Positions 6,872 to 20,016 of a stretch of 64,000 bases of DNA are shown here, in pieces (the stretch's first letter is position 1; each line of letters starts with the position of its first letter). Below the pieces are notes generated by a model. It was not told where the DNA came from and made no database searches. It worked only from the letters and a program-made list of their open reading frames with translations. Source of the stretch: Clostridiaceae bacterium (GTDB taxonomy: Bacteria; Bacillota; Clostridia; Christensenellales; CAG-138). Location of the stretch: positions 13,839-77,838 of the forward strand of contig JBDKRL010000006.1 of assembly GCA_039683415.1 (NCBI GenBank), in the 5' to 3' direction. Position numbers and translations under genes: made by a program.

Positions 6872-7809
6872 ACGAAACAGAATTTACAGTCAAACAAGGC
6901 GGTATCGAGGGAACCGAGGGAGTTCAACATCGGGTGCTCTCCGTTTGCGGCGGGCCTGTCTCGGTCTACGAGGCGGGGGATCCGCAAAATCCCGCCGTCG
7001 TGCTGCTGCACGGGGCGATGTATGACGAGGCACGCTTCTGCTGGGATCAGCTGTTTCCCGAGCTGGCAAAGCAATACCACGTGTTCGCTGTCGATACCCC
7101 GCGGCATGGGGCGTCCCGCCCCTGGAGCGGGACGCTCGAGCGCGCGCGCCTGCTGGACATTCTGGAAGAAACGTTTGCGCAGATTCTGCCGAAGCGGTTC
7201 AGCATCGTCGGCCTTTCCATGGGCGGCGGGCTTGCGATTGAATACGCCGCGCTCCACCCCGAACAGGTTGTTTCGATGGCGCTGTTCGAGCCGGGCGGAC
7301 TGGGCGAAACGGTCACTGGCGAGCTGTTTACGTATCTCTATATCCATACGCCGGGGATGCTGCGCCTGCTCAGTAAGAAATACGTCAAACTGGATCGCGG
7401 CAAAATAGAAAAGCTCCTTCGCTCCATCTACACAGGCGGGTCTGTTCCCACCGACCCGGAGCGGCTGACTGCGATTCTCGAGGACGAAATTCGCGGCAAG
7501 TTCGACAGCGGCGAAAACGATATGGACGACTGGCAGCTCAGCGCAATCGCTCCGTTCCGGCTGAAATGGAACCTGCTTGGCACGATTCCGCTGCTCCGCT
7601 GCCCGACGCTCTGGCTCAGGGGGAACAAGAGCATCCTTGTCAAGCAAAGCGAAATGGAACGCGCGGTCCTGCTCGCGCAAAAAAGCGGCGCAAGCGCGGA
7701 GCTCCTGGTGGTACCGAACGCGGGGCACATCCTGCCGCTGGAACGACCGGAGACGGCGAACCGGGCGGTGCTGGAATTTCTCGGCAGGACAGTGAAACAG
7801 GCAGACTAG
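6868..7809 (+). CDS. alpha/beta hydrolase
   Basis: ATGA overlap with the tetR stop. Motifs: VVLLHGA, GLSMGG nucleophile elbow, C-terminal NAGH. Confidence 0.85.
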   Translation: MNETEFTVKQGGIEGTEGVQHRVLSVCGGPVSVYEAGDPQNPAVVLLHGAMYDEARFCWDQLFPELAKQYHVFAVDTPRHGASRPWSGTLERARLLDILEETFAQILPKRFSIVGLSMGGGLAIEYAALHPEQVVSMALFEPGGLGETVTGELFTYLYIHTPGMLRLLSKKYVKLDRGKIEKLLRSIYTGGSVPTDPERLTAILEDEIRGKFDSGENDMDDWQLSAIAPFRLKWNLLGTIPLLRCPTLWLRGNKSILVKQSEMERAVLLAQKSGASAELLVVPNAGHILPLERPETANRAVLEFLGRTVKQAD

Positions 7810-7822
7810 CGAGATAAGAAAA

Positions 7823-7846
7823 CCCGCCGCGATAAAAAACGGCGGG
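7823..7846 (-). terminator. intrinsic terminator for the minus-strand flavodoxin/FMN-binding operon
   Basis: CCCGCCG/CGGCGGG 7-bp stem. The minus-strand reading is followed by TTTTCTTATC; the plus strand has no T-run. Confidence 0.55.
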
Positions 7847-7940
7847 GGAACGCGCTTCGACCGGCAAAGCGGGATTCGTTTGTTGAGCGGAACCAGGGGT
7901 TAAGCATATTGCCATATGAGGATTATCGCAAAAATACAAA

Positions 7941-8348
7941 TCAAGGCGTCAACGCATCTTCCAGGGCGGCAAAGAACGCGTTACTGTCCGCGGTGGCGCC
8001 GGAAACGGCGTCCACATCCGTCGACTGCGCGGCAAGCACACGGTCAACCAGCGTTTGAATCGTTTCCTCCTTGGCAAACACCTGCGGTTTGGTCTGCCGG
8101 ATGGTTATCATTTCGTGATCCTGAACCGTAACTTCCACGGTATTGCTCCAGCGAAACCCGCTGTAGCGCCCTGTGTATGTTCCGTCGCTGACGGAAAGCG
8201 GGGTTAAGCCGCCGTGCGCAAGGTTCAGGGTTTTTTCCTTGCCCACCAACACAAACGCCGCCATACACCCCGCCAACACGACAAGCGTAATGAGGACACC
8301 GAGCAGCACCCGAAGAAGGGTTTTTAGAACATTTTTCAGTTTGTTCAC
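7941..8348 (-). CDS. FMN-binding domain protein, membrane-anchored, predicted extracytoplasmic
   Basis: Track ORF 7941..8564 trimmed to an in-frame GTG at 8346-8348, which overlaps the upstream TGA (GTGA). One TM helix, then a domain ending in DAVSGATADS (the SGAT flavinylation-type motif of FMN_bind domains). Confidence 0.7.
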   Translation of the reverse strand: MNKLKNVLKTLLRVLLGVLITLVVLAGCMAAFVLVGKEKTLNLAHGGLTPLSVSDGTYTGRYSGFRWSNTVEVTVQDHEMITIRQTKPQVFAKEETIQTLVDRVLAAQSTDVDAVSGATADSNAFFAALEDALTP

Positions 8349-8896
8349 AGCGCTGTTCCTGCTGATTCCGCGAGCAGACCCGACAGGAAGCCAACCAGCT
8401 CTTCCACCGCCGCCGAATCGATCTGCGGCGGGGAAGCGTGCGTTTTGGCGTATTCCTTCAGAATCATGTTCGCCATCGGGATGCCTTTCCCTTTGCGGAT
8501 TTCTCCGCCGAGATGACGGTAATAAACCGAAGCGTTCGTGATGGAAGCGGGAAGCCGCTGCCATAAATACGGTTTGTCTTCCTGCTCCGTGCCGATTCCG
8601 CAGGTGAACAGGATCAGCTTTTTTTGAAGCAGACTCGTTTCGTGAACCGCGCAGAACCGCGAAAGTGCCTTGATGGGCATGCCCATATACATGGCGGTGC
8701 CAAGCGCAATCACGTCGTATCCGCCCAGATCCATCTTTCGCATGGGTCGTTTTTTTGCCGCGCCGGATGCATCGAGCAGCGTTCCGGCAATGCAGTCATA
8801 CCGGTCGCATGCGGAGCCAAACGGTTTTGCCAGAGCATTGGCCGCGTCGCGCGTCGTGCCTGCTTTGGAAGCGTAAACGATGAGACATTTTTTCAT
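8345..8896 (-). CDS. flavodoxin-like protein
   Basis: MKKCLIVYASKAGTTRDAA N-terminal phosphate-binding loop and a YDVIALGTAMY segment. Confidence 0.75.
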   Translation of the reverse strand: MKKCLIVYASKAGTTRDAANALAKPFGSACDRYDCIAGTLLDASGAAKKRPMRKMDLGGYDVIALGTAMYMGMPIKALSRFCAVHETSLLQKKLILFTCGIGTEQEDKPYLWQRLPASITNASVYYRHLGGEIRKGKGIPMANMILKEYAKTHASPPQIDSAAVEELVGFLSGLLAESAGTAL

Positions 8897-8987: not shown

Positions 8988-9033
8988 CTAACAATGTTAG
9001 CCTGATTATATGGGGTTGCGAATGCGCTGTCAA
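8988..9033 (-). promoter_or_regulatory. canonical minus-strand promoter (TTGACA-17-TATAAT) with palindromic operator O1
   Basis: Minus-strand TTGACA is the complement of 9028-9033 and TATAAT the complement of 9005-9010. The palindrome CTAACA-A-TGTTAG at 8988-9000 lies just downstream of the -10, at the expected start site. Confidence 0.65.
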
Positions 9034-9106
9034 GCGGTTCTTTTTCAACCGCGGCATCTGCGGGCGCTTCGTAAAAACGGTGTAAAATCGCTTCTGTCAA
9101 AAAACG

Positions 9107-9136
9107 TTGACAATACTAACGACGTTAGTTTAAAAT
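9107..9136 (+). promoter_or_regulatory. tetR promoter (TTGACA-18-TAAAAT) with palindromic operator O2 in the spacer
   Basis: TTGACA 9107-9112 and TAAAAT 9131-9136. Perfect palindrome ACTAACG-A-CGTTAGT at 9115-9129; its half-site matches O1. Confidence 0.65.
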
Positions 9137-9194
9137 GATGAAACCGCGGAAAAGTCAACGGATTTGGCGGCGGGACGAACGACTAAGGAATTGA

Positions 9195-9854
9195 GTGAAG
9201 CGTATGCAGGGCGAACGCAGTTTGACCAATCGAGAGAGAATCTTTTATACGGCAATCGACCTTTTTGCGCAGAAGGGATACGCGGGGGTGAGCCTACGCG
9301 AGCTCGCGGGCGCCGTAGGGATCAAGGCCGCATCAATTTACAACCACTTTGCGAGCAAAGAAGCGATTCTGGAAGAGATTGCATTTGTGTTTCGCGATCG
9401 ATTGATGGAGAAAGTCGTATCTGCTATTCAATCCGCAAAGGCGGAAGATATCCCTTCGTTCATCGGCGTGGTGACGCAGGCAAACGACGCATTTTTTGCC
9501 GACGCGCTGAACGAAAAAATGGGCTGGATCGTGCTGCGGGAGCAGTTTCTCAACGAGAATATTCGCGAAATTTTGCTCGATGTGCTGATCCGCCAGCCGC
9601 GCGAGCTGATTGCGGAACAGTTTGCGCGGTTCATGGAGAGCGGCAGAATGCGGCAGGCCGATCCCGTTGTCGCGGCAAAGGAATACCACGCGTTTTATAT
9701 TTACGAGTTTTACGAAAACGCCCTCTCGCGCGACAACGGCCACTCACCGGAACGCGCGGAGCAGGAGAAGAGCGAGCATATCCGTTTGTTCATACAAAAC
9801 TGGACGTCGGAGGAACCGGAGGAAAGATCAACGGATGCTGGATTTGCCCGCTAA
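9195..9854 (+). CDS. TetR/AcrR family transcriptional regulator
   Basis: GTG start 5 nt after AAGGA. HTH: IFYTAIDLFAQKGYAGVSLRELAGAVGIKAASIYNHF. Confidence 0.85.
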   Translation: MKRMQGERSLTNRERIFYTAIDLFAQKGYAGVSLRELAGAVGIKAASIYNHFASKEAILEEIAFVFRDRLMEKVVSAIQSAKAEDIPSFIGVVTQANDAFFADALNEKMGWIVLREQFLNENIREILLDVLIRQPRELIAEQFARFMESGRMRQADPVVAAKEYHAFYIYEFYENALSRDNGHSPERAEQEKSEHIRLFIQNWTSEEPEERSTDAGFAR

Positions 9855-9898
9855 AAGGAAGTCCAATGCGACCCTGTCGCGAACATGATGCACGGGTG

Positions 9899-10612
9899 TC
9901 AGCTTCCAAAGATCAGCATATACAAACCAACGATGCCGAGCAGAACCGCGACGAATTTCTGGAACCTGCTTTTCTCCATGCGCTGGATGAACCGATTGGC
10001 GGCGAATGTTCCGGCCACCATGGCAGCGCCCATGGATAATCCCAGCAGCAGAGTTTCCGCTGTGAGAAACAACAGCTTGGAATAGATGATGGTTTTGAGG
10101 ATGTGCATGGCGGTGGCGGTGGCCGCCTCGCTGGCGATATACGCAACCGGCGAAAGTCCCAGCGAAAGGAACACCGCCGCGCCGATCGGCCCGCCGCTTC
10201 CGGCAAGGCCGGATAACCCGCCCGTAACAGCGCCGCCGATGAGCAGCGTTTTTTTATTTGCCTTGAGTTCGAACAGCTTGACCATTTGAAAGACGACAAG
10301 AAGAACCAGCGCGCCGCCGATGCAGCGCGTGACGATATCCTTTGGCAGTACGGAAAAGCCAAACGCTCCGAGCGCGGAAAGCGGCAGCGCGGTGAGACAA
10401 AACCAGCCGACCGCGCTCCATTTAATCTGCTTGAAACCAGCCGCCATGCGGGAGAGATTGCCGATGAGCTGCGCCAGCGTAATGACCGGAACCGCCGCTT
10501 CCGCGCCGATGTAGTACGTGATGACCGGCAAGAGCAGCAGCGCGCCGCCAAAGCCCGCCGCGCCGGAGATCAGCGCGGCAAGAAAGCTTGCCAGTATCAG
10601 TACAATCCACAT
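9899..10612 (-). CDS. TauE/SafE family sulfite/anion exporter
   Basis: 237 aa with about 8 TM helices. The repeated GxGGG motifs (SGAAGFGGALLLLP, GLAGSGGPIG) are typical of the family. Confidence 0.85.
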   Translation of the reverse strand: MWIVLILASFLAALISGAAGFGGALLLLPVITYYIGAEAAVPVITLAQLIGNLSRMAAGFKQIKWSAVGWFCLTALPLSALGAFGFSVLPKDIVTRCIGGALVLLVVFQMVKLFELKANKKTLLIGGAVTGGLSGLAGSGGPIGAAVFLSLGLSPVAYIASEAATATAMHILKTIIYSKLLFLTAETLLLGLSMGAAMVAGTFAANRFIQRMEKSRFQKFVAVLLGIVGLYMLIFGS

Positions 10613-10671
10613 AGGCCGCTCCTAACCGTCTTTAAAGAATGGAATCACGAAAAAACGAAGGCAGCCGCAGT

Positions 10672-11370
10672 TTACACGCGCCCGGCAATCCAATCGTTCA
10701 TGAACGTCATCTGTTCTTCGGTATGGAACCAATGCTCGCCGTTTTCCATCACGGTCAGCTCACAGTGGAACCGTTCGGCAAGCGCGTCGATGTCGGTTCG
10801 GTCGGTCAGGTTCTCCAAACTGCCGTACAGCAGGCTGGTGGAACTGTTCCAACGATTGATGGGATGCTGTTTTGCGTAGCAGTAGTATTCCCAGCTCAGC
10901 GTTTGGCCAAAGGCAGTCTCGATGAGCTGCTTTGCTTCCAGCTCCTCTTTTGTGACGCCCGCCCAACCCATCATCTTTTCGATGAGATGCGCCATATCCA
11001 GAACGGGGGAGACGAGAAGGCTTTTTTCGATGCGCTTGGTTTGAAACGCAAGCATGCTGTACCAGGCTCCGATGCTGTTGGCGCGCAGAGCGATTTTGTC
11101 CGGCTTTGACTGCTCCAGAAAATCCCAAACGGCTTGAAGTTCCGGCACGACGATCCAGGGGAGGAACCGCCCGCTTTCGCCGGTTCGTTCGCCATGCTCC
11201 GGCAAGTCGACGCCGACGACCTGCCAGCCCTTGGGCTGAACGATTTCGGCAAAGGCGACGGCTTCCTCTTTGCTGCCGCCCTGTCCGTGGACAAACAGAT
11301 AGACGTTGCCGGAAGGTTCGCCGCAGACGATGGCGGGAATGCCTCCAATGGTTGTTCGTTCGATCTTCAT
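10672..11370 (-). CDS. alpha/beta hydrolase
   Basis: 232 aa. Motifs: LFVHGQGGSKEE, ANSIGAW elbow-like motif, C-terminal GEHWFH. Confidence 0.7.
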   Translation of the reverse strand: MKIERTTIGGIPAIVCGEPSGNVYLFVHGQGGSKEEAVAFAEIVQPKGWQVVGVDLPEHGERTGESGRFLPWIVVPELQAVWDFLEQSKPDKIALRANSIGAWYSMLAFQTKRIEKSLLVSPVLDMAHLIEKMMGWAGVTKEELEAKQLIETAFGQTLSWEYYCYAKQHPINRWNSSTSLLYGSLENLTDRTDIDALAERFHCELTVMENGEHWFHTEEQMTFMNDWIAGRV

Positions 11371-11371
11371 A

Positions 11372-11725
11372 TCACTTAATCCTGCGAATCAGGATTCCTT
11401 TCATGAATCGTGTTTGATTATGAATCTGCCAGATCAGCTCTTTTTCCTGCTCCGTGCATCCGATCAATAGTTTGATCTCCGAATCCCGTTTCATTAAGTC
11501 CACAATGCACATGACCGCGTCGAGCCGTCTGCTTTCGTCGGAACCCAGCCAAACGTCGATTCCGCCGCCGTCCATGGATGCGGTTTGTTCCAAGCAGCCG
11601 TAATCCACCGGATAGATAAAATCCGGATACCGGGGGTGTGCCGTACCCTTTGGACGGTCGATGACCAGCTGAGAATCCTGAATCAGCGTTTCAAACGCCG
11701 TCCAGAACGCGTCGTTTTGTTCCAT
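11372..11725 (-). CDS. small hypothetical protein (resembles proteins annotated as inorganic pyrophosphatase-like; unverified)
   Basis: Track ORF trimmed to MEQNDAF (ATG 11723-11725, GGAGG upstream). Contains DRPKGTAHPRYPDFIYPVDYGCL. Confidence 0.5.
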   Translation of the reverse strand: MEQNDAFWTAFETLIQDSQLVIDRPKGTAHPRYPDFIYPVDYGCLEQTASMDGGGIDVWLGSDESRRLDAVMCIVDLMKRDSEIKLLIGCTEQEKELIWQIHNQTRFMKGILIRRIK

Positions 11726-11880
11726 GGGATGGCCTCCGTACTTTATGAATATGTATTGATGTGAAAAAAGGCAGCAAGTAAAAACCACCGTTAGCTGCCT
11801 GATTCATGCGGGCAAAAAAGGCAGCAAAGACGTACGCCGCCGTTTGCTGCCGGATTCATTAATAAGGCCTACTCGTCATT

Positions 11881-13497
11881 TTATTTCGGCCGTAACACTT
11901 CGAACAGCGCGGTATACGTCGCGTTCCCTTCGACCGTTTCGGAAGGTTCGCTGTCCCAGCCGATGAAGCGCCAGCCGGAGCTCGCTGTCACTTCCGGAAT
12001 GGTGATGGAATCGCCAATCGCCATGCCGCTGAACACCAGCGTATCGCCGGAGGTGCCTTTGTTGTCCAGATTAAACGTAACGGTATAGGTGGTCACCACA
12101 TACTGCGCGGTGTAGACAGCGTTTCCCGTGACCGTCGTAACGGGAGTGGTGTCCCAGCCGTCGAACGTCCAGCCCTCGTCGGCGGTTACGTCCGGAACCG
12201 TGATCGTGTCGCCGGAGGCAAGCCCGCTGAACACGAGCGTATCGCCGGAAGTACCGTGTTCACCCAGAGCAAACGACACCTCAAAGTTTGACGCTTCCGC
12301 GTACTGCGCGACGTATTCCTTGTTCCCTTTTACGGTGGCGGAGGGTGTAACGTCCCAGCCCTCGAACGTCCAGCCGGAATTTGCGGTCACGCTCGGAACG
12401 CGGATATCGGCTCCGTAAGAAAGTCCGCTGAATACGAGGCGATCCGTGGAGGTTCCGTGGTCGCCCAGCAGGAAACGAACGGTGTAGGTGGTCTTTTGGT
12501 ACTGCGCGGTGAACTGCGCGCCGCTTGTAAGCGCAAGCTGGCTGACCTCTTCGGAGCTCAGACACTCGGTGCCGCCTTTCGGCAGCCATCCGGCTAACGT
12601 GTATCCGGCGGGAGGGTTGACCGCTGGAATCTGATCCAGCGCTACCCGCAAGGTGGCCGAAAGGTCCAGCGCGGGCACTTCGGCATTGGTCAGCGACCCG
12701 CGGTCGCCCGCAAGGAAGGTGACTTCCATCGGGGCAAGCCGGAACGAAATCAACTGGGAAGCCCAGTTGCCGCTTCGCCCTGCGGTCAGGGTGCGCGTTT
12801 CAACTGCGCCGGAATCCTGCGTCTGCTCCGAAGCATACAGGACAAAGCCGCCGTCGGTCAGTTCGTTAAAGAGCGTCTGGATCCCTTCCGGATCATCCGG
12901 CGCTGTAAAACTGACAGAATTGTCCGAAATCCCGAACAGGGTGACGATAACAGCGGGTTCTTCCGTCTCGAAGCCGTCCACCGTCAGGTCGGTTCCGCTG
13001 CCGGTTTCGCCGGAAACGGTGCCGATGGGGTTCGTCGGGTCGATTCCACGGCAGATCAGTATCTTGCCGGAAACCTGCGCTTGTTCGTCGTCCGCGTTCC
13101 CGGTTGCGACGAGGAACGGGTACAAGCCCGGTTCTTCCGCAGGATCTTGAATGAATTTGTAGAAGCTTGTCATGCCGATGCCGGCTTCGTTGACCGTCCG
13201 CATGATGATGGTCCAGCCGGAGGCGGTCTCAACGGAAAAGTCTGCCTCACCGACGCAGCAAATCTGCGCAAGCAGCATGTCGCCTGATGACGCGCCGTCG
13301 GGCAGCGCAAGCGAAAGTTCGGTAACCGGCGTTTCCCCGCTTGCTTCGGCGGCGGGGTCCGGCACGGCGGATGGCGTGGAAGGCGCGGCATCCTGCACGT
13401 CCGGCGCACAGGCCAGACAGAAAGCGGCTGACAGGATAAGCAGGACGGCTAAAAGAAAAACGAACAGACGCGGCTTGGCATTGGCTTGCTGCTGCAT
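11881..13497 (-). CDS. secreted lipoprotein with four InlB B-repeat (Listeria-Bacteroides type) domains
   Basis: Trimmed to MQQQANAKPRLFVFLL. Signal peptide with lipobox FCLAC. The C-terminal half has 4 units of about 65 aa, e.g. YTVTFNLDNKGTSGDTLVFSGMAIGDSITIPEVTASSGWRFIGWD. Confidence 0.75.
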   Translation of the reverse strand: MQQQANAKPRLFVFLLAVLLILSAAFCLACAPDVQDAAPSTPSAVPDPAAEASGETPVTELSLALPDGASSGDMLLAQICCVGEADFSVETASGWTIIMRTVNEAGIGMTSFYKFIQDPAEEPGLYPFLVATGNADDEQAQVSGKILICRGIDPTNPIGTVSGETGSGTDLTVDGFETEEPAVIVTLFGISDNSVSFTAPDDPEGIQTLFNELTDGGFVLYASEQTQDSGAVETRTLTAGRSGNWASQLISFRLAPMEVTFLAGDRGSLTNAEVPALDLSATLRVALDQIPAVNPPAGYTLAGWLPKGGTECLSSEEVSQLALTSGAQFTAQYQKTTYTVRFLLGDHGTSTDRLVFSGLSYGADIRVPSVTANSGWTFEGWDVTPSATVKGNKEYVAQYAEASNFEVSFALGEHGTSGDTLVFSGLASGDTITVPDVTADEGWTFDGWDTTPVTTVTGNAVYTAQYVVTTYTVTFNLDNKGTSGDTLVFSGMAIGDSITIPEVTASSGWRFIGWDSEPSETVEGNATYTALFEVLRPK

Positions 13498-13699
13498 GAT
13501 GATCCCCCTGAACACTAAATTGGAATAGTTGGTCGGATGATGCTGAAAAAGAGATCAACTTGTTCAGTGTATGCAAGATAAGTGAAACTTCTATTCAGAA
13601 CTGTAACGGTAAAATTATAACGATTCCATTTCGGCTAGTCAATTTAAAAGAATAAAACGCGTGAAAAATGATAAACGGTAAACAAAAACAAGCCTGCGC

Positions 13700-14584
13700 T
13701 CAGTCGTTTATGGCCTCGACGCCCTGATGCTTGAGCTTTGCCAGATGATCCAGCATGGCCTGCAGCACTTCCGGCGGATGCCCCTGCCAGTCTGTTACCT
13801 CGCCAACCACCTTGAGCGGAAATTTGGTGCGGTAGGAGCGGGTAGGATTGCCGGGGAACCTTTTATCCGTCAGGTTGGGATCGTTTTCAAACGCGCCCGT
13901 TGGTTCCACCCGATAGATGCGCCCGGGAGCGCTGCCCTGCGCAAGTTCCGCGCCCCAAACCGCCGCATCCAGCGTCGCGGTCAGGTAGACGAAGTTCGCC
14001 GTTTTACGTTCCCCGTAGTTGGATTCGTGCCGGGGTTCCAGCAGATCGCCGGGATGTAAATCGGCCTTTGTGCCATGGTAAAAAGGGCCTGCATCGAGCG
14101 GGGGAGCATTTTCGGCTTTTTCACCGAGCGAAAGACTTAAAAACACGGTGCCGGGGACCGGGCAATCGTAGTACGGCGGCACTTCAACAAAGCCCAATTG
14201 CCGGTACATCTTCTGCGCGCGCTCCATATTGGCGAGCGTGTCCAGTACAATCGCCTGGCAGCCGGTCTCCTTTGCGTCCTGAATGACGCGCAAAACAAGC
14301 TGCTTTCCAAGCTGCATACCGCGGAACGAATCGCGCACGTACAGCCGCTTCATCTCGGCGCGCGAAGCATCCAGCCTGCGCATGGCGATGCATCCGGCGG
14401 GTTCGCCTTCGGCCAGCACAAGGTAGAGCCTGCCGTCCGGCCGGGCGTATTTGCCGGGCAGGCTCGCCAGTTCCTCGGCGTAATTCTGGTAACACAAATC
14501 GACGGGCAGCGTGGCGGCGTATTCGCTCAACAGGGTCTTTATGTCGGCAATGCGGTCATAGGCTTCGATGATTTCCAGCTGCAT
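13700..14584 (-). CDS. arr: fusion protein: N-terminal GNAT acetyltransferase domain plus C-terminal rifampin ADP-ribosyltransferase (Arr) domain
   Basis: Residues ~1-150 are GNAT (YVRDSFRGMQLGKQLV). Residues ~160-294 (GPFYHGTKADLHPGDLL...YLTATLDAAVWGAELA...RIYRVEPTGAFENDPNLTDKRFPGNPTRSYR...VTDWQGHP) match Arr proteins nearly motif for motif, from memory of Arr-2/Arr-ms. Confidence 0.8.
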   Translation of the reverse strand: MQLEIIEAYDRIADIKTLLSEYAATLPVDLCYQNYAEELASLPGKYARPDGRLYLVLAEGEPAGCIAMRRLDASRAEMKRLYVRDSFRGMQLGKQLVLRVIQDAKETGCQAIVLDTLANMERAQKMYRQLGFVEVPPYYDCPVPGTVFLSLSLGEKAENAPPLDAGPFYHGTKADLHPGDLLEPRHESNYGERKTANFVYLTATLDAAVWGAELAQGSAPGRIYRVEPTGAFENDPNLTDKRFPGNPTRSYRTKFPLKVVGEVTDWQGHPPEVLQAMLDHLAKLKHQGVEAIND

Positions 14585-14751
14585 TTATTACCTCTTGCTG
14601 TTCATGCAAATCTGCGTTTTGATGATCCTATTTTAACACAAAGTCAATTCGAATTCCCGGAATGGTTTTCTGCAACTGCATGCGAAAAGAGCCTGCTGCT
14701 GCACGAAAATTCCCGGTCATTGCCACAATCGCCGCGCAGATCCGAAAGGCA

Positions 14752-14780
14752 TTGACTTTGTATCCAACATAGATTATAAG
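14752..14780 (+). promoter_or_regulatory. candidate promoter TTGACT-17-TATAAG
   Basis: TTGACT 14752-14757 and TATAAG 14775-14780, about 146 nt upstream of the ATG at 14927. Confidence 0.5.
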
Positions 14781-14926
14781 TTAATTAACCACACGACGCA
14801 GGATTTCCGCCGCAAGGGGGGGGAGGAGCGGCCGGCAAAGGCTATCGTATGGGGCGAACTTATCATTCATACCGCAGCGATCTGCAGGCAACCAAGGGCA
14901 AAAAACAATATAAAAGGGAGGTACAT

Positions 14927-15505
14927 ATGGTCGTTAACATCATCGCAATCGTCATCGGCATCATCGCGTGTCTGTTTGGGTACAAGGTATTTCGAATCTG
15001 GCTTGCTCTGGCGGGTCTGGTGCTGGGCGCAGCGCTGGGCTACTATCTAGGCGGTCTCATTGGCGAGCAGATATGGCCGATCGTCTGCGCAATCGCCGTA
15101 GGGCTGCTGCTCTGCGCGCTGTCCTACTTCCTCTACCGCGTCGGTGCAATCCTGATTGGCGCGCTGCTTGGAGCCGTCTTTACCTCGGTAATTCTCTCCG
15201 CACTCAGCGTGACTGCGCTGCCGTGGATGATCCTCGTCGGCGCCGTTGTCGTAGCCATCATCGCGGGGATCTTCCTCAAGCAGTTCATCATCATCGGCAG
15301 TTCGTTCCAGGGCGCATATATGATCGTTGTTGGCGCTTATGCGCTGATTACGGGCATGACGAGCTATGTCGGGTTTAGCAGCACGATGAACGCCGTCGAG
15401 CTGCCCTGGTATGTGCTGGCGATCGTCACGGTGGTCGGCATCTGCGCCGTCGTCATCCAAAACAGAATCGAGAAAAAGGCGCCCGCAAAGGCTGTTTCCG
15501 CATAA
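14927..15505 (+). CDS. multi-pass membrane protein (DUF4203-like)
   Basis: Track ORF trimmed to MVVNIIAIVIG (ATG 14927, GGGAGG 6 nt upstream). About 6-7 Gly/Ala-rich TM helices. Confidence 0.65.
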   Translation: MVVNIIAIVIGIIACLFGYKVFRIWLALAGLVLGAALGYYLGGLIGEQIWPIVCAIAVGLLLCALSYFLYRVGAILIGALLGAVFTSVILSALSVTALPWMILVGAVVVAIIAGIFLKQFIIIGSSFQGAYMIVVGAYALITGMTSYVGFSSTMNAVELPWYVLAIVTVVGICAVVIQNRIEKKAPAKAVSA

Positions 15506-15797
15506 CGCGGGGAGCCGGAGTTTCTCAACCAAACAGGCAGGAAGGGCTGAATGCGCAGGCGTTCGGCTCTTTTTTTCTGCAGTGAGCCGCCCGGATGAAG
15601 GAGAACGGCTTTCCCGGCATAGCGAAACGGGAGCTTCCAGGAATCAATGCATCCGGCAGGGCAAACGGGAGCGCCAACCGAAAATAAACATTTATAATTA
15701 CATGTGTCGATAAATATGATACGATGAAGTTGAAACTCACCATGCTTGCGCATGAAAACGGAACCCGGAGTGACTGCTTCATCGTGGAGGTGTTTGT

Positions 15798-16769
15798 TTG
15801 ACGATTGGAAAATTGTGGAGACCGGAAACATTTCAGGGGGCGCACCGCAGCAGGGACTATTTCGAAGGGTGGTATTTTAAGCTCATCGATCAGTCCCGCA
15901 GGACGGTGCTTGCCGTCATACCCGGCGTTGCGATAGGCAAAAGCAAACAGGATTCGCACGCTTTTATCCAACTGATCGATGCGGTGAGCGGAAAAACGGA
16001 GTATTTCCGGTTTCCGTTCAGCGATTTTTCGGCGGACAAACGCAGGTTCGATGTTTATATCGGCGCAAACCATTTTTCCGATCAGGGGGTCGAAATCGAC
16101 CTTGAAAACGAGTCGACGCGGATCTCATGCCGCCTTCGGTTCGACCATATCGAGAAGTATCCCTGGTCGTTTTTTAACCCCGGCATCATGGGCCCATTTT
16201 CCTTTATGCCGGGCATGGAGTGCTACCACGGAATCGTGAACATCAGCCATACGATATCTGGTACGCTGTTCCACAACGGCGAGCAAATCGATATGACGGG
16301 CGGGGAAGGATATATTGAAAAGGACTGGGGCAGGTCGTTTCCGGAGTCCTGGATTTGGATGCAGGCCAATCATTTTGAAACGCGCGGCACGTCCTTTTTG
16401 TTCTCGGTTGCGCAGATACCGTGGCTGGGCAGGAGCTTTACTGGATTGATTTCATTTTTAAAAACGCCCTCCGGATTCTACCGGTTCGCGACATACAACG
16501 GCGCAGCGATACAGCGCCTGCGCATCGCCGGCAACAGGATAGAAGCCAGCATCAAAGGCGTGGCACATACCCTTGCGTTCACCGCGGCGTACGCGCGCGG
16601 AGGCATTCTGAAAGCGCCGAAAAACGGCATGATGCACAGAGAGATAGAGGAGAGCATTACGGCGGAAGTGAACGTCACCCTGACCGGGCGAACAGGCAAT
16701 ACCATCTTTACCGGATCAAGCAACCGCGTTGGCATGGAATTATCGGATGCGGGCAAGTTTCTGGGATAA
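15798..16769 (+). CDS. tocopherol cyclase family-like protein
   Basis: TTG start after GGAGG. Contains FEGWYFKLID...GMECYHG...GGEGYIEKDWGRSFPESWIWMQANHF, which matches my memory of Pfam Tocopherol_cycl homologues. Confidence 0.65.
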   Translation: MTIGKLWRPETFQGAHRSRDYFEGWYFKLIDQSRRTVLAVIPGVAIGKSKQDSHAFIQLIDAVSGKTEYFRFPFSDFSADKRRFDVYIGANHFSDQGVEIDLENESTRISCRLRFDHIEKYPWSFFNPGIMGPFSFMPGMECYHGIVNISHTISGTLFHNGEQIDMTGGEGYIEKDWGRSFPESWIWMQANHFETRGTSFLFSVAQIPWLGRSFTGLISFLKTPSGFYRFATYNGAAIQRLRIAGNRIEASIKGVAHTLAFTAAYARGGILKAPKNGMMHREIEESITAEVNVTLTGRTGNTIFTGSSNRVGMELSDAGKFLG

Positions 16770-16850
16770 CCGCCCAGAAAAGCCTGGCGTGCCTGACAAA
16801 AAACATTTTTACGTATAAAGCGAATCAATTGAGAAAGATGGGGACAATTC

Positions 16851-17609
16851 ATGGCGCTGCATTTGGAACAAGGGATTCAACTGGAAGAGGAGGAACGCTT
16901 TCGGGAAGCCATCGCGGAGTATGATTTGGCCGCGCTGGAAGAGCCGGAAAATCCCGTGCCGCTTTATCGAAAAGGTGCGCTGCTCAACGAGCTGGGCGAC
17001 TTTGAACATGCGCTATTGAGTTTGAATGCCGCCTTAACAATCAACAGCCGGGATATCGACGCACTGGCGGCCAGAGGGGATGTTTACTCGTCGCTCAAAC
17101 GATATGAAGAGGCGATCGCGGATTTTTCCATCGTCGTTTCGATCGTTCCGGATGACGTGGATTCATACTACAACCGGGGATTGGCCTATGCGGATACCGG
17201 ACGGATTGAGCGGGCGATTCAGGATTTCTCCACGGCAATCCAGATGGATCCGAACCATGGCGGCGCATACAACAATCGCGGACTTGCGTTTTTCCGATCC
17301 GGGGATTATGCTGCCGCGCTGCAGGATTTTACGCAGGCAATTACGGTTCGCTCGGGATTTGCCTGTTCCTACACCCACCGAGGGCGCGTACAGGAAGCGC
17401 TGGGGGACGCTGGCAAGGCGCTGGAAGACTACGGCAAGGCGCTGGACATGAGTCCAACCGACGCTACGACGTTGTTTTTCAGAGGAGCGCTCTATTTTGC
17501 TCTGAACGAACCTGAACGAGGACGGCGCGATTACGAAGTTTTAATCGAAACCGCACCTCGCGATAATGCGTTTCGTACGCTGGCAATGAAAAAACTGGAG
17601 CTCGTTTAA
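16851..17609 (+). CDS. tetratricopeptide (TPR) repeat protein
   Basis: About 6 tandem 34-aa units with the A..Y..RG.AY....Y..A..DF..AI pattern. Confidence 0.8.
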   Translation: MALHLEQGIQLEEEERFREAIAEYDLAALEEPENPVPLYRKGALLNELGDFEHALLSLNAALTINSRDIDALAARGDVYSSLKRYEEAIADFSIVVSIVPDDVDSYYNRGLAYADTGRIERAIQDFSTAIQMDPNHGGAYNNRGLAFFRSGDYAAALQDFTQAITVRSGFACSYTHRGRVQEALGDAGKALEDYGKALDMSPTDATTLFFRGALYFALNEPERGRRDYEVLIETAPRDNAFRTLAMKKLELV

Positions 17610-17721
17610 CCCGGTTCCGAAAGCGCCGACACGGGCGTTTCCAGCGCCGGGCGCCGTTTTGCGCCCTGCCCAATCCGGAGAGAGCGCGAAACAGGCGGAA
17701 AATGCAGGGATTGCCGACGAG

Positions 17722-19032
17722 TTACGGTGCGGGCGTAAAAAACGCATCCGGCGTCACGGCATTTGGCACATACTCCCAGAACGGCGGGATGTATTCCGGC
17801 GGGGTCAGCTCGAGGTAGAGATCGATCAGCTCGTCCTTGAGGAGCGGGATTTCCATATCGGCGCTGTACGCATCCCAGTCATACCAGGAATCGTTCTGCA
17901 CTTTGTCCAGCAGTTCGTTGCCGTTGTACGCAATATCCCAATTGCGGTAATTGACGATCAAGTCCGCCAGCGTGCCGGAACCAAGAAGGTGCACGCCCTC
18001 CAGCATCGGGCTGCAAGCGCTGTAGTACTTCCACACATCCATGCACGAAAGATTGGCGGGGGCTGTTTCCCAATCAATGTAGTAGGAGAACAGGTATTCG
18101 CCGTTGAACAGGCTGTGCGCGTCGGTCGTGCCTTCAGGTGTGCCGTAGTAGTCAATCGCCCAGATGATGCGCTTAGAGCCGTTCAGCAGATAGTAATATA
18201 TACTGATTTGACCGAATAGATAGCCCTCCTCAAAATCATCATCAACCCCCATTAAAAGGACTGCCTGCTCGCGGGAAAGCGCGGGCATCGGCGTTGCGGC
18301 GGGGGTGGGAGTAGGAGGATTGTCGAAATCAGCCGGCGTCACCGCGTTTGGGACATACTCCCAGAACGGCAGAAGATACTCCGTGGGCGTGGAGCCGATA
18401 TAGGCGCTGAGCATCTTTTCTTTTGTCCAGGGGTACACGCCAAAAGATTCTTCCTCAATATACGAATTGATCACCATAAAAGGATCGCCGATACCGGCGG
18501 CGCTGAGGCTATTTTTGGTAAAAAATTCGTCGATTTCGAGGAGCTTGCCTGATGAGAGGAAGGTGTACTGACTGAAGGAATCGCCGAGTTGGGAGATATA
18601 CTTTGTGTAGGTATTTGGATTCGCCTTGAGCTGGTCTTCCATCGGAACAGTCACCTGAAACAGCAGTTGGCGGTTGAACGCTTCGTAGAAATTGAATACG
18701 CCCTGTGTTGCGCTCGGTTCTTTGATTGCCCAGATCAGGCGGCCTTCGCCATTTAATTCAGCATAGAACAAAATAATATTCGTCGGAGCGTACCCGCTGT
18801 AGTCTTCGCCCATCCAAATCATGATCTTTTTTTGTTCATCGGTGAGCGTCGGCGTCGGCACCGGGGAAGGCGTTGGCGTTGGCGTCGGTTCACTGGTTGG
18901 CGTTAAAACAGCGGTCGTTTCCGGCGTCGCGGCCGACACGGCACTGCTCATGGCACAGCCTGCCGAAAAAAGAGACAGAAAAACAAAGACTGCCGCTGAA
19001 ATGGCGGCGAAATGGCGAGTATTCAGCTTCAT
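17722..19032 (-). CDS. lipoprotein with internally duplicated ~195-aa module
   Basis: Signal peptide with lipobox FSAGC, then a PTPTPTPSPVPTPT linker. Both modules end in PFWEYVPNAVTP; the DNA copies are 585 bp apart (catactcccagaacggc at 17769 and 18354). Confidence 0.7.
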   Translation of the reverse strand: MKLNTRHFAAISAAVFVFLSLFSAGCAMSSAVSAATPETTAVLTPTSEPTPTPTPSPVPTPTLTDEQKKIMIWMGEDYSGYAPTNIILFYAELNGEGRLIWAIKEPSATQGVFNFYEAFNRQLLFQVTVPMEDQLKANPNTYTKYISQLGDSFSQYTFLSSGKLLEIDEFFTKNSLSAAGIGDPFMVINSYIEEESFGVYPWTKEKMLSAYIGSTPTEYLLPFWEYVPNAVTPADFDNPPTPTPAATPMPALSREQAVLLMGVDDDFEEGYLFGQISIYYYLLNGSKRIIWAIDYYGTPEGTTDAHSLFNGEYLFSYYIDWETAPANLSCMDVWKYYSACSPMLEGVHLLGSGTLADLIVNYRNWDIAYNGNELLDKVQNDSWYDWDAYSADMEIPLLKDELIDLYLELTPPEYIPPFWEYVPNAVTPDAFFTPAP

Positions 19033-19137
19033 GGTTCCCCCCGAAACGATGATTTGAGCGAAAGGTCACTTCCGCAATTATGGCATACGGATGGATGAAT
19101 ATTCAACGTTGACTTTTCTTATTTTGAGCGTCCACCG

Positions 19138-20016
19138 TTATCTTCGGCAATCCTGTCGGATAAACGGTTCTTCAACCGTTTCCGAAACGAGCAAACGATA
19201 CTTTTGCGGATGGCGGTAGGCGTTGCCGTGCACTTCTCTGCGGCGGTAATCCCGAATTTCGTCGATGGGGAAATCGGCAAGAAGAATTCCTTCCTCTTCG
19301 CCCGCTTCCACAAGGAGCGTATCTCTGGATTCGGGCAGAGAAGGCTTGTAGGCGATTCCGTCAAACGCGGTGGAATGCCCGTTGCAGTCCGGCTGGCCTT
19401 TGGGGTAGTTCACGGTTGCAATGCCGAGCATGTTTTCAAACGCTCGCGCGCGGAGCTGCGAAATACGGTTGATCTCCATGGGGCAGGCGTTCGGCACGAG
19501 GATAAGCTCCGCGCCTTTGAGCATCAATATCCTTGCGCTTTCGGGAAACTCCCGGTCGTAGCAGATCATGGCTCCAACTTTGACGGTTCCCTGCGCGGTG
19601 TCAAGCTCGGCAACGGCAAAGTCTTCGCCCGCCGTCAGCAGGCGTTCGTCGTCAAAATCGCAGGTATGAACCTTTGCGTAGATCAGTGCTTTTTTGCCGA
19701 ACCGGTCGAACAGGTAAAGGGTGTTTCTCGGCGCGGGCGAATACGCTTCCAGAAACGTAACGCCGATGGCCATCTCCAACTCGCGCGCCAAGTTGCCGAA
19801 TGCGCGGACGAATTCGCAATCGCAGGGGATGGCGCGTTCCTTCATTTCGTTAACGTTGCTGGAAAGCCGGTAGCCAATGCTCCAAAGTTCGGGAAACAGC
19901 GCGATGTCCGCGCCCAGTTTTTTTGCGTTCCGGCAGGCATCCAGCCCCTTTTTAAGATTTGCGTCCGGCGTGTTTTCCGGCAGAAGCTGCATCAGCGCAA
20001 TCCTGAGATTCTTCAT
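19138..20016 (-). CDS. carbon-nitrogen hydrolase (nitrilase superfamily)
   Basis: LFPELW (Glu), AKVH (Lys) and MICYDREFPE (Cys) form the catalytic triad pattern. Confidence 0.85.
   Translation of the reverse strand: MKNLRIALMQLLPENTPDANLKKGLDACRNAKKLGADIALFPELWSIGYRLSSNVNEMKERAIPCDCEFVRAFGNLARELEMAIGVTFLEAYSPAPRNTLYLFDRFGKKALIYAKVHTCDFDDERLLTAGEDFAVAELDTAQGTVKVGAMICYDREFPESARILMLKGAELILVPNACPMEINRISQLRARAFENMLGIATVNYPKGQPDCNGHSTAFDGIAYKPSLPESRDTLLVEAGEEEGILLADFPIDEIRDYRRREVHGNAYRHPQKYRLLVSETVEEPFIRQDCRR

Follow-up and report, generated by a model that had tools for sequence, protein, structure and literature searches.

Arr, the NAD+--rifampin ADP-ribosyltransferase, is typically a protein of ~140-150 amino acids (aa), and both Arr-ms of Mycolicibacterium smegmatis (2HW2) and the integron-borne ARR-2 and Arr-3 carry an H-Y-D triad, the motifs HGT, SN[Y/F] and DPN[V/L] and a C-terminal helix that caps rifampin. 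In the DNA analysed here, a window of 64,000 nucleotides from contig JBDKRL010000006.1 of a Clostridiaceae bacterium, one gene encodes a protein with the same triad, motifs and helix and with 57% identity to Arr-ms over its C-terminal 131 aa. However, this protein differs from the rest of the Arr family in that a GNAT acetyltransferase domain of 153 aa is added at its N terminus, which brings it to 294 aa. The fusion gene also differs from those of ARR-2 and Arr-3 in being chromosomal, in uncultured anaerobic Clostridia, with no plasmid or integron carriage.

Two described arrangements resemble this fusion. In the enzyme AAC(6')-Ie-APH(2'')-Ia, an N-terminal GNAT and a second modifying enzyme are likewise joined in one polypeptide; both of its halves act on the same drug class, and its gene is transposon-borne in pathogens. 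Judged from its sequence, the fusion appears to have what characterises enzymes of this type, since a single translated chain contains two catalytic domains that are both complete, although its second partner is an ADP-ribosyltransferase and its gene is chromosomal. In the catB3-arr-3 cassettes of clinical integrons, found on Enterobacterales plasmids, the gene directly before arr encodes an acetyltransferase, which is the order seen in the fusion. Unlike the two parts of the fusion, however, catB3 and arr-3 are separate genes in separate cassettes, and CatB3 is a hexapeptide acetyltransferase, related to the streptogramin acetyltransferase Vat, rather than a GNAT. By analogy, this pair could illustrate how co-located resistance genes come to fuse.

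No description of a GNAT-Arr fusion was found in the literature that we searched, which agrees with a preliminary description of this locus whose author knew of none. We consider it moderately probable that the protein is a two-activity detoxification enzyme, composed of a genuine Arr and an active GNAT that were fused once, act independently of each other and were kept together for co-expression.

Conservation and gene model of the fusion

The preliminary description had reported a single 294-aa open reading frame (ORF) without giving its strand. The ORF call agrees with it, with an ATG start on the minus strand and the stop codon included in the coordinates (Table 1). All of the motifs that it had quoted were present in the ORF: RLYVRDSFRGMQLGKQLV at aa 80-97, GPFYHGTKA at aa 166-174, VWGAELA at aa 209-215, YRVEPTGAFENDPNLTDKRFPGNPTRSYR at aa 224-252 and DWQGHP at aa 265-270. 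The junction between the domains, which it had correctly located near 14100, contains neither a stop codon nor a frameshift, and the same frame is kept in 14 protein clusters from separate assemblies.

These clusters (at 90% identity; 48 member sequences) were obtained by searching 5.8 billion clustered proteins, and all have the same 294-aa architecture of GNAT plus Arr, at 74-98% identity. They originate from ENA, Logan and JGI assemblies and from one NCBI 'bioreactor metagenome' entry, representing at least 8 independent samples, and the exact window protein was recovered on an independent Logan contig as well. The alignment of the resulting 15-sequence family contains no indels, and its sole variable block is aa 154-161, between the domains. 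When four lineages were compared in pairs by the Nei-Gojobori method, the ratio of nonsynonymous to synonymous substitution rates (dN/dS) was 0.09-0.18 in the GNAT half and 0.10-0.15 in the Arr half. In the linker it was 0.13-1.4, and five of the six pairs had linker values of 0.4-1.4. Purifying selection acts on both halves, and the linker mostly drifts; the high linker ratios in these five pairs fit a flexible tether without a fixed interface.

The fusion is not apparent from the deposited NCBI annotation, in which the protein (MEN6594482.1) is an Arr of only 148 aa (window 13700-14143) that starts at an internal GTG (V147); MEN6339777.1, from a second metagenome-assembled genome (MAG), is an identical call. 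The V147 GTG falls within the last β-strand of the GNAT domain, has no Shine-Dalgarno (SD) sequence (2/6 match) and corresponds to no start codon in two of the four lineages examined (L086 and L082), whereas a GAGG core lies 6-7 nt upstream of the full-length ATG in all four. Because the NCBI start is an internal GTG that lacks an SD sequence, and the SD sequence stands solely at the full-length ATG, the public annotation hides the fusion, and the GNAT half is absent from the protein record.

The two 148-aa calls would agree with the explanation that no real fusion exists, either because the 294-aa frame is an assembly or annotation artefact or because the cell produces just the 148-aa Arr from a gene whose N-terminal half is decaying. 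The same explanation could draw on one ENA contig in which a frameshift splits the gene into products of 110 aa (P0182) and 175 aa (P0124), each listed with 38,595 bp as its longest contig. However, it conflicts with the identical, indel-free 294-aa frame of the 14 clusters from independent samples, with the low dN/dS of the GNAT half, with the placement of the SD sequence and with a 148-aa call that would begin inside a GNAT β-strand. We regard it as scarcely credible and as effectively refuted already. The merging of two genes by the assembly, in particular, is ruled out by the single gap-free frame in 14 clusters, the GNAT dN/dS and the SD placement. The frameshift in the ENA contig, which encodes a relative of P0002, lies near codon 87 (between RLYVRQAF and SRAPNRQ...), and reflects either faulty sequencing or a natural GNAT knockout that leaves an Arr-containing product from M120.

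The two catalytic halves and the origin of the fusion

The preliminary assignment of a GNAT fold to the N-terminal part and of Arr to the C-terminal part was upheld by Pfam and NCBIfam scores far beyond chance. For the C-terminal half, the Arr-ms model PF12120 matched aa 168-266 over its full length (model positions 1-99 of 99; E 2.7e-49, 165.9 bits against a threshold of 25), and the NCBIfam equivalog model NF033144 (rifampin_ARR) matched aa 165-294 (model positions 2-131, full) with 206.6 bits against a cut-off of 130. The C-terminal 130 residues aligned without gaps to the Arr-ms structures 2HW2 and 9IAF (E 3e-46, 57% identity) and likewise to the ARR-2 structure 9IBA (E 5e-41).

The catalytic triad of Arr-ms is H19/Y49/D84 (PMC8120803), and its functional residues include HGT, SN[Y/F], DPN[V/L], K91, L92, P96, S99 and M126/L130/L133/A139/I141 (PMC6092378). 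The equivalent triad of the fusion, H170/Y200/D235, is invariant in all 15 family members, as are G171 and T172 of HGT and S188, N189 and Y190 of SNY in the NAD site; DPNL and M277-L-D-H-L281 are also invariant in the fusion family. When the 25 published positions of the NAD and rifampin sites were compared, 17 were identical, 7 were motif-allowed or conservative and 1 was non-conservative (A139E). The replacements comprise F39Y, V87L, K91K/R, L92F, R127L, Q128D and G129H, and at the rifampin site the fusion has DPNL, K/R242, F243, P247, S250, M277-L-D-H-L281, L284 and I292. The M-L-D-x-L form of helix α2, which covers R127L, is also found in ARR-2 (MLDSL), a proven enzyme. The N-terminal rifampin contact F9 of Arr-ms corresponds to the linker residue P/S160 in the fusions and is not conserved. 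Judged by its sequence, the Arr half is as likely a rifamycin ADP-ribosyltransferase as any protein that passes the equivalog model. The preliminary suggestion that the Arr had been recruited to a different substrate is disfavoured, since the triad is kept and 24 of the 25 site positions are identical, allowed or conservative.

For the N-terminal half, Acetyltransf_1 (PF00583) matched aa 42-132 (E 2.7e-18, 66.8 bits against 20.7), and the related models PF13508 (E 1.8e-13, 51.1 bits against 27) and PF13673 (E 1.3e-08, 35.3 bits against 23.6) also passed their thresholds; jointly, the three span aa 42-135. In an AlphaFold2 model built from the 15-sequence alignment, aa 1-153 had a predicted local distance difference test score (pLDDT) of ~85 and the expected order of strands and helices, and the linker scored low. 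The top Foldseek matches were all GNATs, namely the uncharacterised 2Q7B and 3D8P, PaiA (1TIQ) and the tabtoxin-resistance protein (1GHE), with template modelling scores of 0.66-0.77 normalised to the target; at 17-23% sequence identity, these matches are too distant for a call of the GNAT substrate.

In the putative acetyl-CoA pyrophosphate-binding loop (motif A, R/Q-x-x-G-x-G/A), R88-G89-x-x-x-G93 does not vary among the fusions, and neither does the tyrosine Y127, a candidate for that of motif B; in 115 stand-alone orthologues these residues are conserved to at least 97%. The central Gly of the canonical motif is replaced by Q/R/K. This replacement is probably tolerated, as the loop would bind through backbone amides. 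At each of the 47 positions with 85% or higher conservation among these orthologues, the fusions have the same majority residue; R84, R88-G89, G93 and Y127 are among them.

A search with aa 1-153 returned many stand-alone proteins of 153-160 aa with up to 77% identity, none of which has a specific name. Those compared most closely (P0130, P0131 and P0140, the last from the Christensenellaceae chromosome OY762290.1) are 62-77% identical to the N-terminal half and differ from the fusion in having no Arr and in their genomic neighbourhoods. The nearest solved structures to this stand-alone family are YsnE (1YX0), 3D8P and 2Q7B. The C-termini of the stand-alone orthologues map to fusion residues 153-160, that is, at the linker. 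The closest of them, P0131 (75% identity), is encoded among abhydrolase, TetR, glyoxalase and GGDEF genes in a block that is partly syntenic and has no arr, and its tail, LPLDRAGNPA followed by the stop codon, resembles the fusion linker; the sister lineage L088 has the stand-alone GNAT in a partly syntenic block without arr. Because the stand-alone orthologues stop at the linker and the related block lacks arr, we conclude that the fusion arose when a resident GNAT gene acquired arr at its 3' end.

Other members of this GNAT family occur in further settings. In L037 (8564-11700) and L076 (4322-7453), stand-alone orthologues with 62-67% identity are followed by genes for a PhnB/VOC-fold protein (PF06983), an NADPH-dependent FMN reductase and a pyridoxal-phosphate (PLP)-dependent decarboxylase; this downstream trio is a weak lead that the ancestral GNAT may acetylate an amine. 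Relatives of the GNAT half with 59% identity form the second domain of Acetyltransf_3-GNAT tandems (P0253, 365 aa; P0256, 520 aa), one of which carries an extra AAA_18/zeta-toxin-like kinase domain. This GNAT family is thus itself prone to fusion.

The genes around the fusion have a conserved order: WYL regulator, DJ-1/PfpI, tocopherol-cyclase-like, second GNAT, CN-hydrolase, 437-aa protein, fusion, abhydrolase, TauE and TetR. Local rearrangements occur within this neighbourhood among family members. Because synteny is kept across fusion members that are only 74-81% identical, and because the GC content of the fusion gene is native to the host genome, we conclude that the fusion has been inherited vertically. 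No plasmid carrying the fusion was found in a search of PLSDB, and no signs of mobile elements were seen at the locus.

Rarity of the fusion and Arr as a fusion module

How widespread the fusion is had been raised in the preliminary description. Among the best 150 matches of an exhaustive phmmer search of 1.84 billion representatives at 50% identity, only one (P0007, of the same family) covers aa 1-294, so that the fusion amounts to a single 50%-identity cluster in that search. Matches of ~310 aa in two stretches, also among the best 150, were considered as independent GNAT-Arr fusions and turned out to be GNAT-GNAT tandems. The 294-aa fusion was present in none of the best 80 loci of GTDB species representatives, perhaps because the source genome is masked or does not serve as a representative. 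The GNAT-Arr fusion is therefore rare and confined to a narrow clade of uncultured Clostridia.

A general linkage between GNAT genes and arr was considered and rejected. In 78 GTDB arr loci, GNAT domains were encoded by 3 of 140 ORFs flanking arr and by 2 of 95 control ORFs ~4 kb away (2.1% vs 2.1%), so that adjacency occurs at the background rate; both ORF sets were chosen by a crude longest-ORF rule, which limits sensitivity equally for the two. In two Clostridia loci (L004, 7380-8723; L013, 7677-8849), unrelated GNAT genes lie directly upstream of arr as separate ORFs, and in L013 a single stop codon separates the two, which share a reading frame. Among the same 140 flanking ORFs (L001-L080), we found GyrI-like and Cass2 effector-binding domains (6 and 4, respectively), SAM methyltransferases (6) and NTP_transf_2 nucleotidyltransferases (6), none of which is among the 25 most frequent families of the control set. 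This composition suggests that arr sits in small-molecule defence islands.

Fusion of Arr to other domains proved to be common, and no mention of Arr fusions was found in the Arr literature that we searched. The earlier statement that Arr is normally a stand-alone protein held for 61 of the 78 GTDB arr loci, in which the ORF has 120-180 aa; however, ~17 ORFs are longer, and tandem Arr-Arr proteins are widespread. Such tandems, of ~240 aa, make up most of the top matches to the fusion query (P0015, P0030, P0062, P0091 and most of P0015-P0120). They are very common in cyanobacteria, Longimicrobiales and many metagenomes, and NCBI names them simply Arr. In P0091 and some others, the first Arr copy lacks parts of the PGNPT/SYR loop, which suggests that this copy may be a degenerate partner domain.

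Further Arr partners range from enzymes to a helix-turn-helix (HTH) regulator (Table 1), and Arr is the C-terminal part in every fusion catalogued. This constant position fits the role of the Arr C-terminal helix, which caps the rifampin site (PMC8120803). The closest parallel to the GNAT-Arr fusion is a fusion of Arr to the streptogramin A O-acetyltransferase Vat. It was found in a cultured isolate, Lutispora saccharofermentans m25 (L002, NZ_JAJEKE010000012.1), and in four MAG species representatives, and a partial Vat-Arr was seen in L032. Like the fusion, Vat-Arr has an N-terminal acetyltransferase, a C-terminal Arr and Clostridia hosts. Unlike GNAT, however, Vat has a hexapeptide-repeat fold unrelated to GNAT, has a known antibiotic substrate and passes a resistance model: in the Vat-Arr of L002, the only one scanned, Vat scored 319.7 bits with NF000311 (cut-off 300) and Arr scored 216.5 bits (cut-off 130). 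The Arr halves of the Vat-Arr proteins are also the closest GTDB relatives of the window Arr half (80% identity, within the best 80 loci). Vat-Arr is predicted to be a single-gene dual resistance determinant, against streptogramin A and rifamycin.

Table 1. Coordinates of the fusion gene and its signals in the window, and of Arr fusion partners in other loci and proteins
Feature	Sequence	Position	Strand	Remarks
Complete GNAT-Arr fusion gene	window	13700..14584	-	single ORF, 294 aa plus stop codon at 13700-13702
GNAT acetyltransferase domain	window	14126..14584	-	aa 1-153
Interdomain linker GEKAENAPPL	window	14096..14125	-	aa 154-163, 10 residues
Arr (NAD+--rifampin ADP-ribosyltransferase) domain	window	13703..14095	-	aa 164-294
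Shine-Dalgarno sequence AAGAGG	window	14591..14596	-	6 nt 5' of full-length ATG; read from sequence
Possible extended -10 element TGTTAAAAT	window	14630..14638	-	~46 nt upstream of ATG; weak, inferred, read from sequence
Promoter-like site TTGACT-17-TATAAT	window	13614..13642	-	11/12, consensus match only; between fusion gene and downstream 544-aa gene
Arr partner: Vat streptogramin A O-acetyltransferase	L002	7361-8395		344 aa
Arr partner: Vat streptogramin A O-acetyltransferase	L003	3279-4313		344 aa
Arr partner: Vat streptogramin A O-acetyltransferase	L005	7365-8399		344 aa
Arr partner: Vat streptogramin A O-acetyltransferase	L006	7365-8399		344 aa
Arr partner: Vat streptogramin A O-acetyltransferase	L035	7365-8399		344 aa
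Arr partner: PLP aldolase (GntG-like)	L052	6939-8429		
Arr partner: alpha/beta-hydrolase	L077	1301-2506		
Arr partner: DUF3795	L017	3414-4268		Pfam
Arr partner: DUF3795	L007	~7600-8420		similar Cys-rich sequence
Arr partner: HxlR HTH	L001	4721-5440		
Arr partner: unassigned 120-aa domain	L012	7647-8408		
Arr partner: SRPBCC/AHSA1	P0254, P0259			
Arr partner: isochorismatase	P0277			
Arr partner: SDR	P0264			
Arr partner: Zn-ADH	P0284			
Arr partner: Imm5-like	P0285			

As to expression of the fusion gene, the candidate -10 element upstream of it was not called by a consensus promoter scanner, and the relatives L085 and L086 have a TATAAT at a comparable distance upstream of the fusion ATG. The interval between the fusion gene and the 544-aa gene that follows it holds a strong promoter-like site; therefore, the fusion gene is probably monocistronic, that is, not co-transcribed with that gene. 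We detected no terminator-like site in 13300-15000, no RNA element in an Rfam scan of 9000-20000 and no shared conserved operator when the upstream regions of relatives were compared. The downstream gene (11881-13515, minus strand), to which this promoter-like site (13642-13614) would belong, encodes a secreted protein with Listeria-Bacteroides (Flg_new) repeats, and its slot is variable in relatives, being occupied by a Flg_new protein or a GGDEF sensor. On the plus strand lie genes for a TM7S3/TM198-like membrane protein (14849-15505) and, in this anaerobic Clostridia genome, a tocopherol-cyclase-like protein (15798-16769; PF14249, E 9.5e-19); the block formed by these two is inverted or relocated relative to L085 and L086.

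Functions of the fused domains

If the protein is a two-activity enzyme, one polypeptide would contain two intact catalytic modules that fold independently and are joined by a flexible linker of 10 residues. As judged from family membership, the Arr module would inactivate rifamycins by attaching ADP-ribose from NAD+ to their C23 hydroxyl, and the GNAT module would use acetyl-CoA to acetylate a different small molecule, possibly an amine. The fusion event itself took place once, in the ancestor of the narrow clade of uncultured Clostridia, and was followed by vertical inheritance. The benefit would most likely be that a single promoter and a single ribosome-binding site serve to express two detoxifying activities together, and not that the two share a reaction. 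The architecture, conservation, selection, origin and gene model were demonstrated above, whereas both catalytic activities and their independence are inferred; the independence of the domains is argued for by the lack of a general GNAT-arr linkage and by the fusion of Arr to many unrelated partners.

Several observations weigh against this interpretation. None of the curated NCBIfam resistance GNAT families includes the GNAT half, which scored far below every cut-off (bits against cut-off: RimI, 33.4/86.4; PaiA, 28/250; ArsN1, 26.7/170; AAC(6') group E, 24.5/140; Sat4, 16.4/380). Because no curated antibiotic-acetyltransferase family fits and GNATs are not enriched beside arr, a resistance role of the GNAT half is a conjecture. 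The bifunctional logic of AAC(6')-APH(2'') that the preliminary description had proposed is accordingly supported in part: two intact halves under selection and the Vat-Arr parallel agree with it, whereas the absence of the GNAT from all antibiotic-acetyltransferase families does not. In the AlphaFold2 model the Arr half had a pLDDT below 50, so that the two-domain model is unreliable, and the constant length of the linker across the family could mean a geometric constraint. Because the N-terminal segment of Arr-ms (F9) touches rifampin (PMC6092378), the GNAT would be tethered close to the rifamycin cleft, and by this analogy the domains could interact. According to reviews, the rifampin function is perhaps not the primary one of Arr (PMC8120803, PMC8492726). 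In addition, the hosts are anaerobes from bioreactor-type metagenomes, whose exposure to rifamycins is uncertain.

A rival proposal is that Arr ADP-ribosylates an endogenous or environmental molecule other than a rifamycin, with the GNAT acting in the same pathway, as a housekeeping or stress enzyme. The chromosomal, syntenic position of the gene in anaerobes, its vertical inheritance and the lack of signs of mobile elements would suit such a role, as would the non-resistance domains among the partners of Arr (HxlR, SRPBCC/AHSA1, SDR, Zn-ADH and PLP aldolase) and the reported roles of Arr in DNA-damage and stress responses (PMC8120803, PMC3138739, PMC8492726). We nevertheless consider it unlikely, given that the rifampin contacts are kept as they are in proven enzymes, that the equivalog model is passed and that GNATs are not enriched near arr; moreover, rifamycins are the only small-molecule targets of Arr that are known, and an alternative substrate has been demonstrated for no Arr (bioRxiv 10.1101/2025.02.20.639278). 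The proximity of the GNAT to the rifampin pocket, through the N-terminal segment of Arr (PMC6092378), would instead favour coupled chemistry, in which a single rifamycin or ansamycin is the substrate of both domains, or the product of ADP-ribosylation is then acetylated by the GNAT, so that inactivation would be double or irreversible. The retention of both halves under selection, the invariant linker length and the unrelated GNAT genes directly upstream of arr in L004 and L013 point the same way. However, adjacency of the two gene types does not exceed background, the ancestral GNAT is widespread without Arr and in different neighbourhoods, and the sequence of the linker is unconstrained. GNATs mostly acetylate amines, whereas the reactive groups of rifamycins at the Arr site are hydroxyls. 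The known modifications of rifampicin are phosphorylation, ADP-ribosylation, glycosylation and hydroxylation and do not include acetylation (PMC10719064), and no rifamycin acetylation was found in the literature that we searched. Coupled chemistry is thus quite unlikely. Its specific form as a composite enzyme, in which the two domains would cooperate to place an ADP-ribosyl and an acetyl group on one rifamycin-class or other ansamycin compound, or in which acetylation would protect the ADP-ribosyl product from removal, seems very doubtful to us, although it would, if true, be a previously unknown chemistry of rifamycin inactivation.

Many GNATs are dimers, and the GNAT half could accordingly be mainly a scaffold or regulator that dimerises the protein or senses acetyl-CoA or another ligand, and so controls or stabilises Arr; the fusions of Arr to ligand-binding or regulatory domains (SRPBCC, HxlR) and to itself would be in line with this. 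In a scaffold, constraint on the catalytic positions should be relaxed; the family-conserved GNAT positions, however, are all kept, including the putative pyrophosphate loop R88-G89...G93 and Y127, and the dN/dS of the GNAT half is as low as that of Arr. A mainly structural or regulatory GNAT is therefore, in our view, very unlikely, and we retain two independent detoxifying activities as the most likely interpretation.

Should the GNAT half detoxify a second compound, the fusion would be a compact dual-resistance determinant. Its immediate clinical relevance is low, because its hosts form a narrow uncultured clade and the gene is not mobile. The fusion adds one case to a large set of Arr fusions and does not make a new kind of system, and the most useful by-products of this analysis are the annotation error and the wider catalogue of Arr fusions, especially Vat-Arr. 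Resistome surveys that use calls of the 148-aa type will miss multi-domain Arr proteins. As a recurrent C-terminal module joined to Vat, GNAT, hydrolases, dehydrogenases, SRPBCC, HxlR or a further Arr, Arr offers in these fusions a handle on its role in environmental bacteria.

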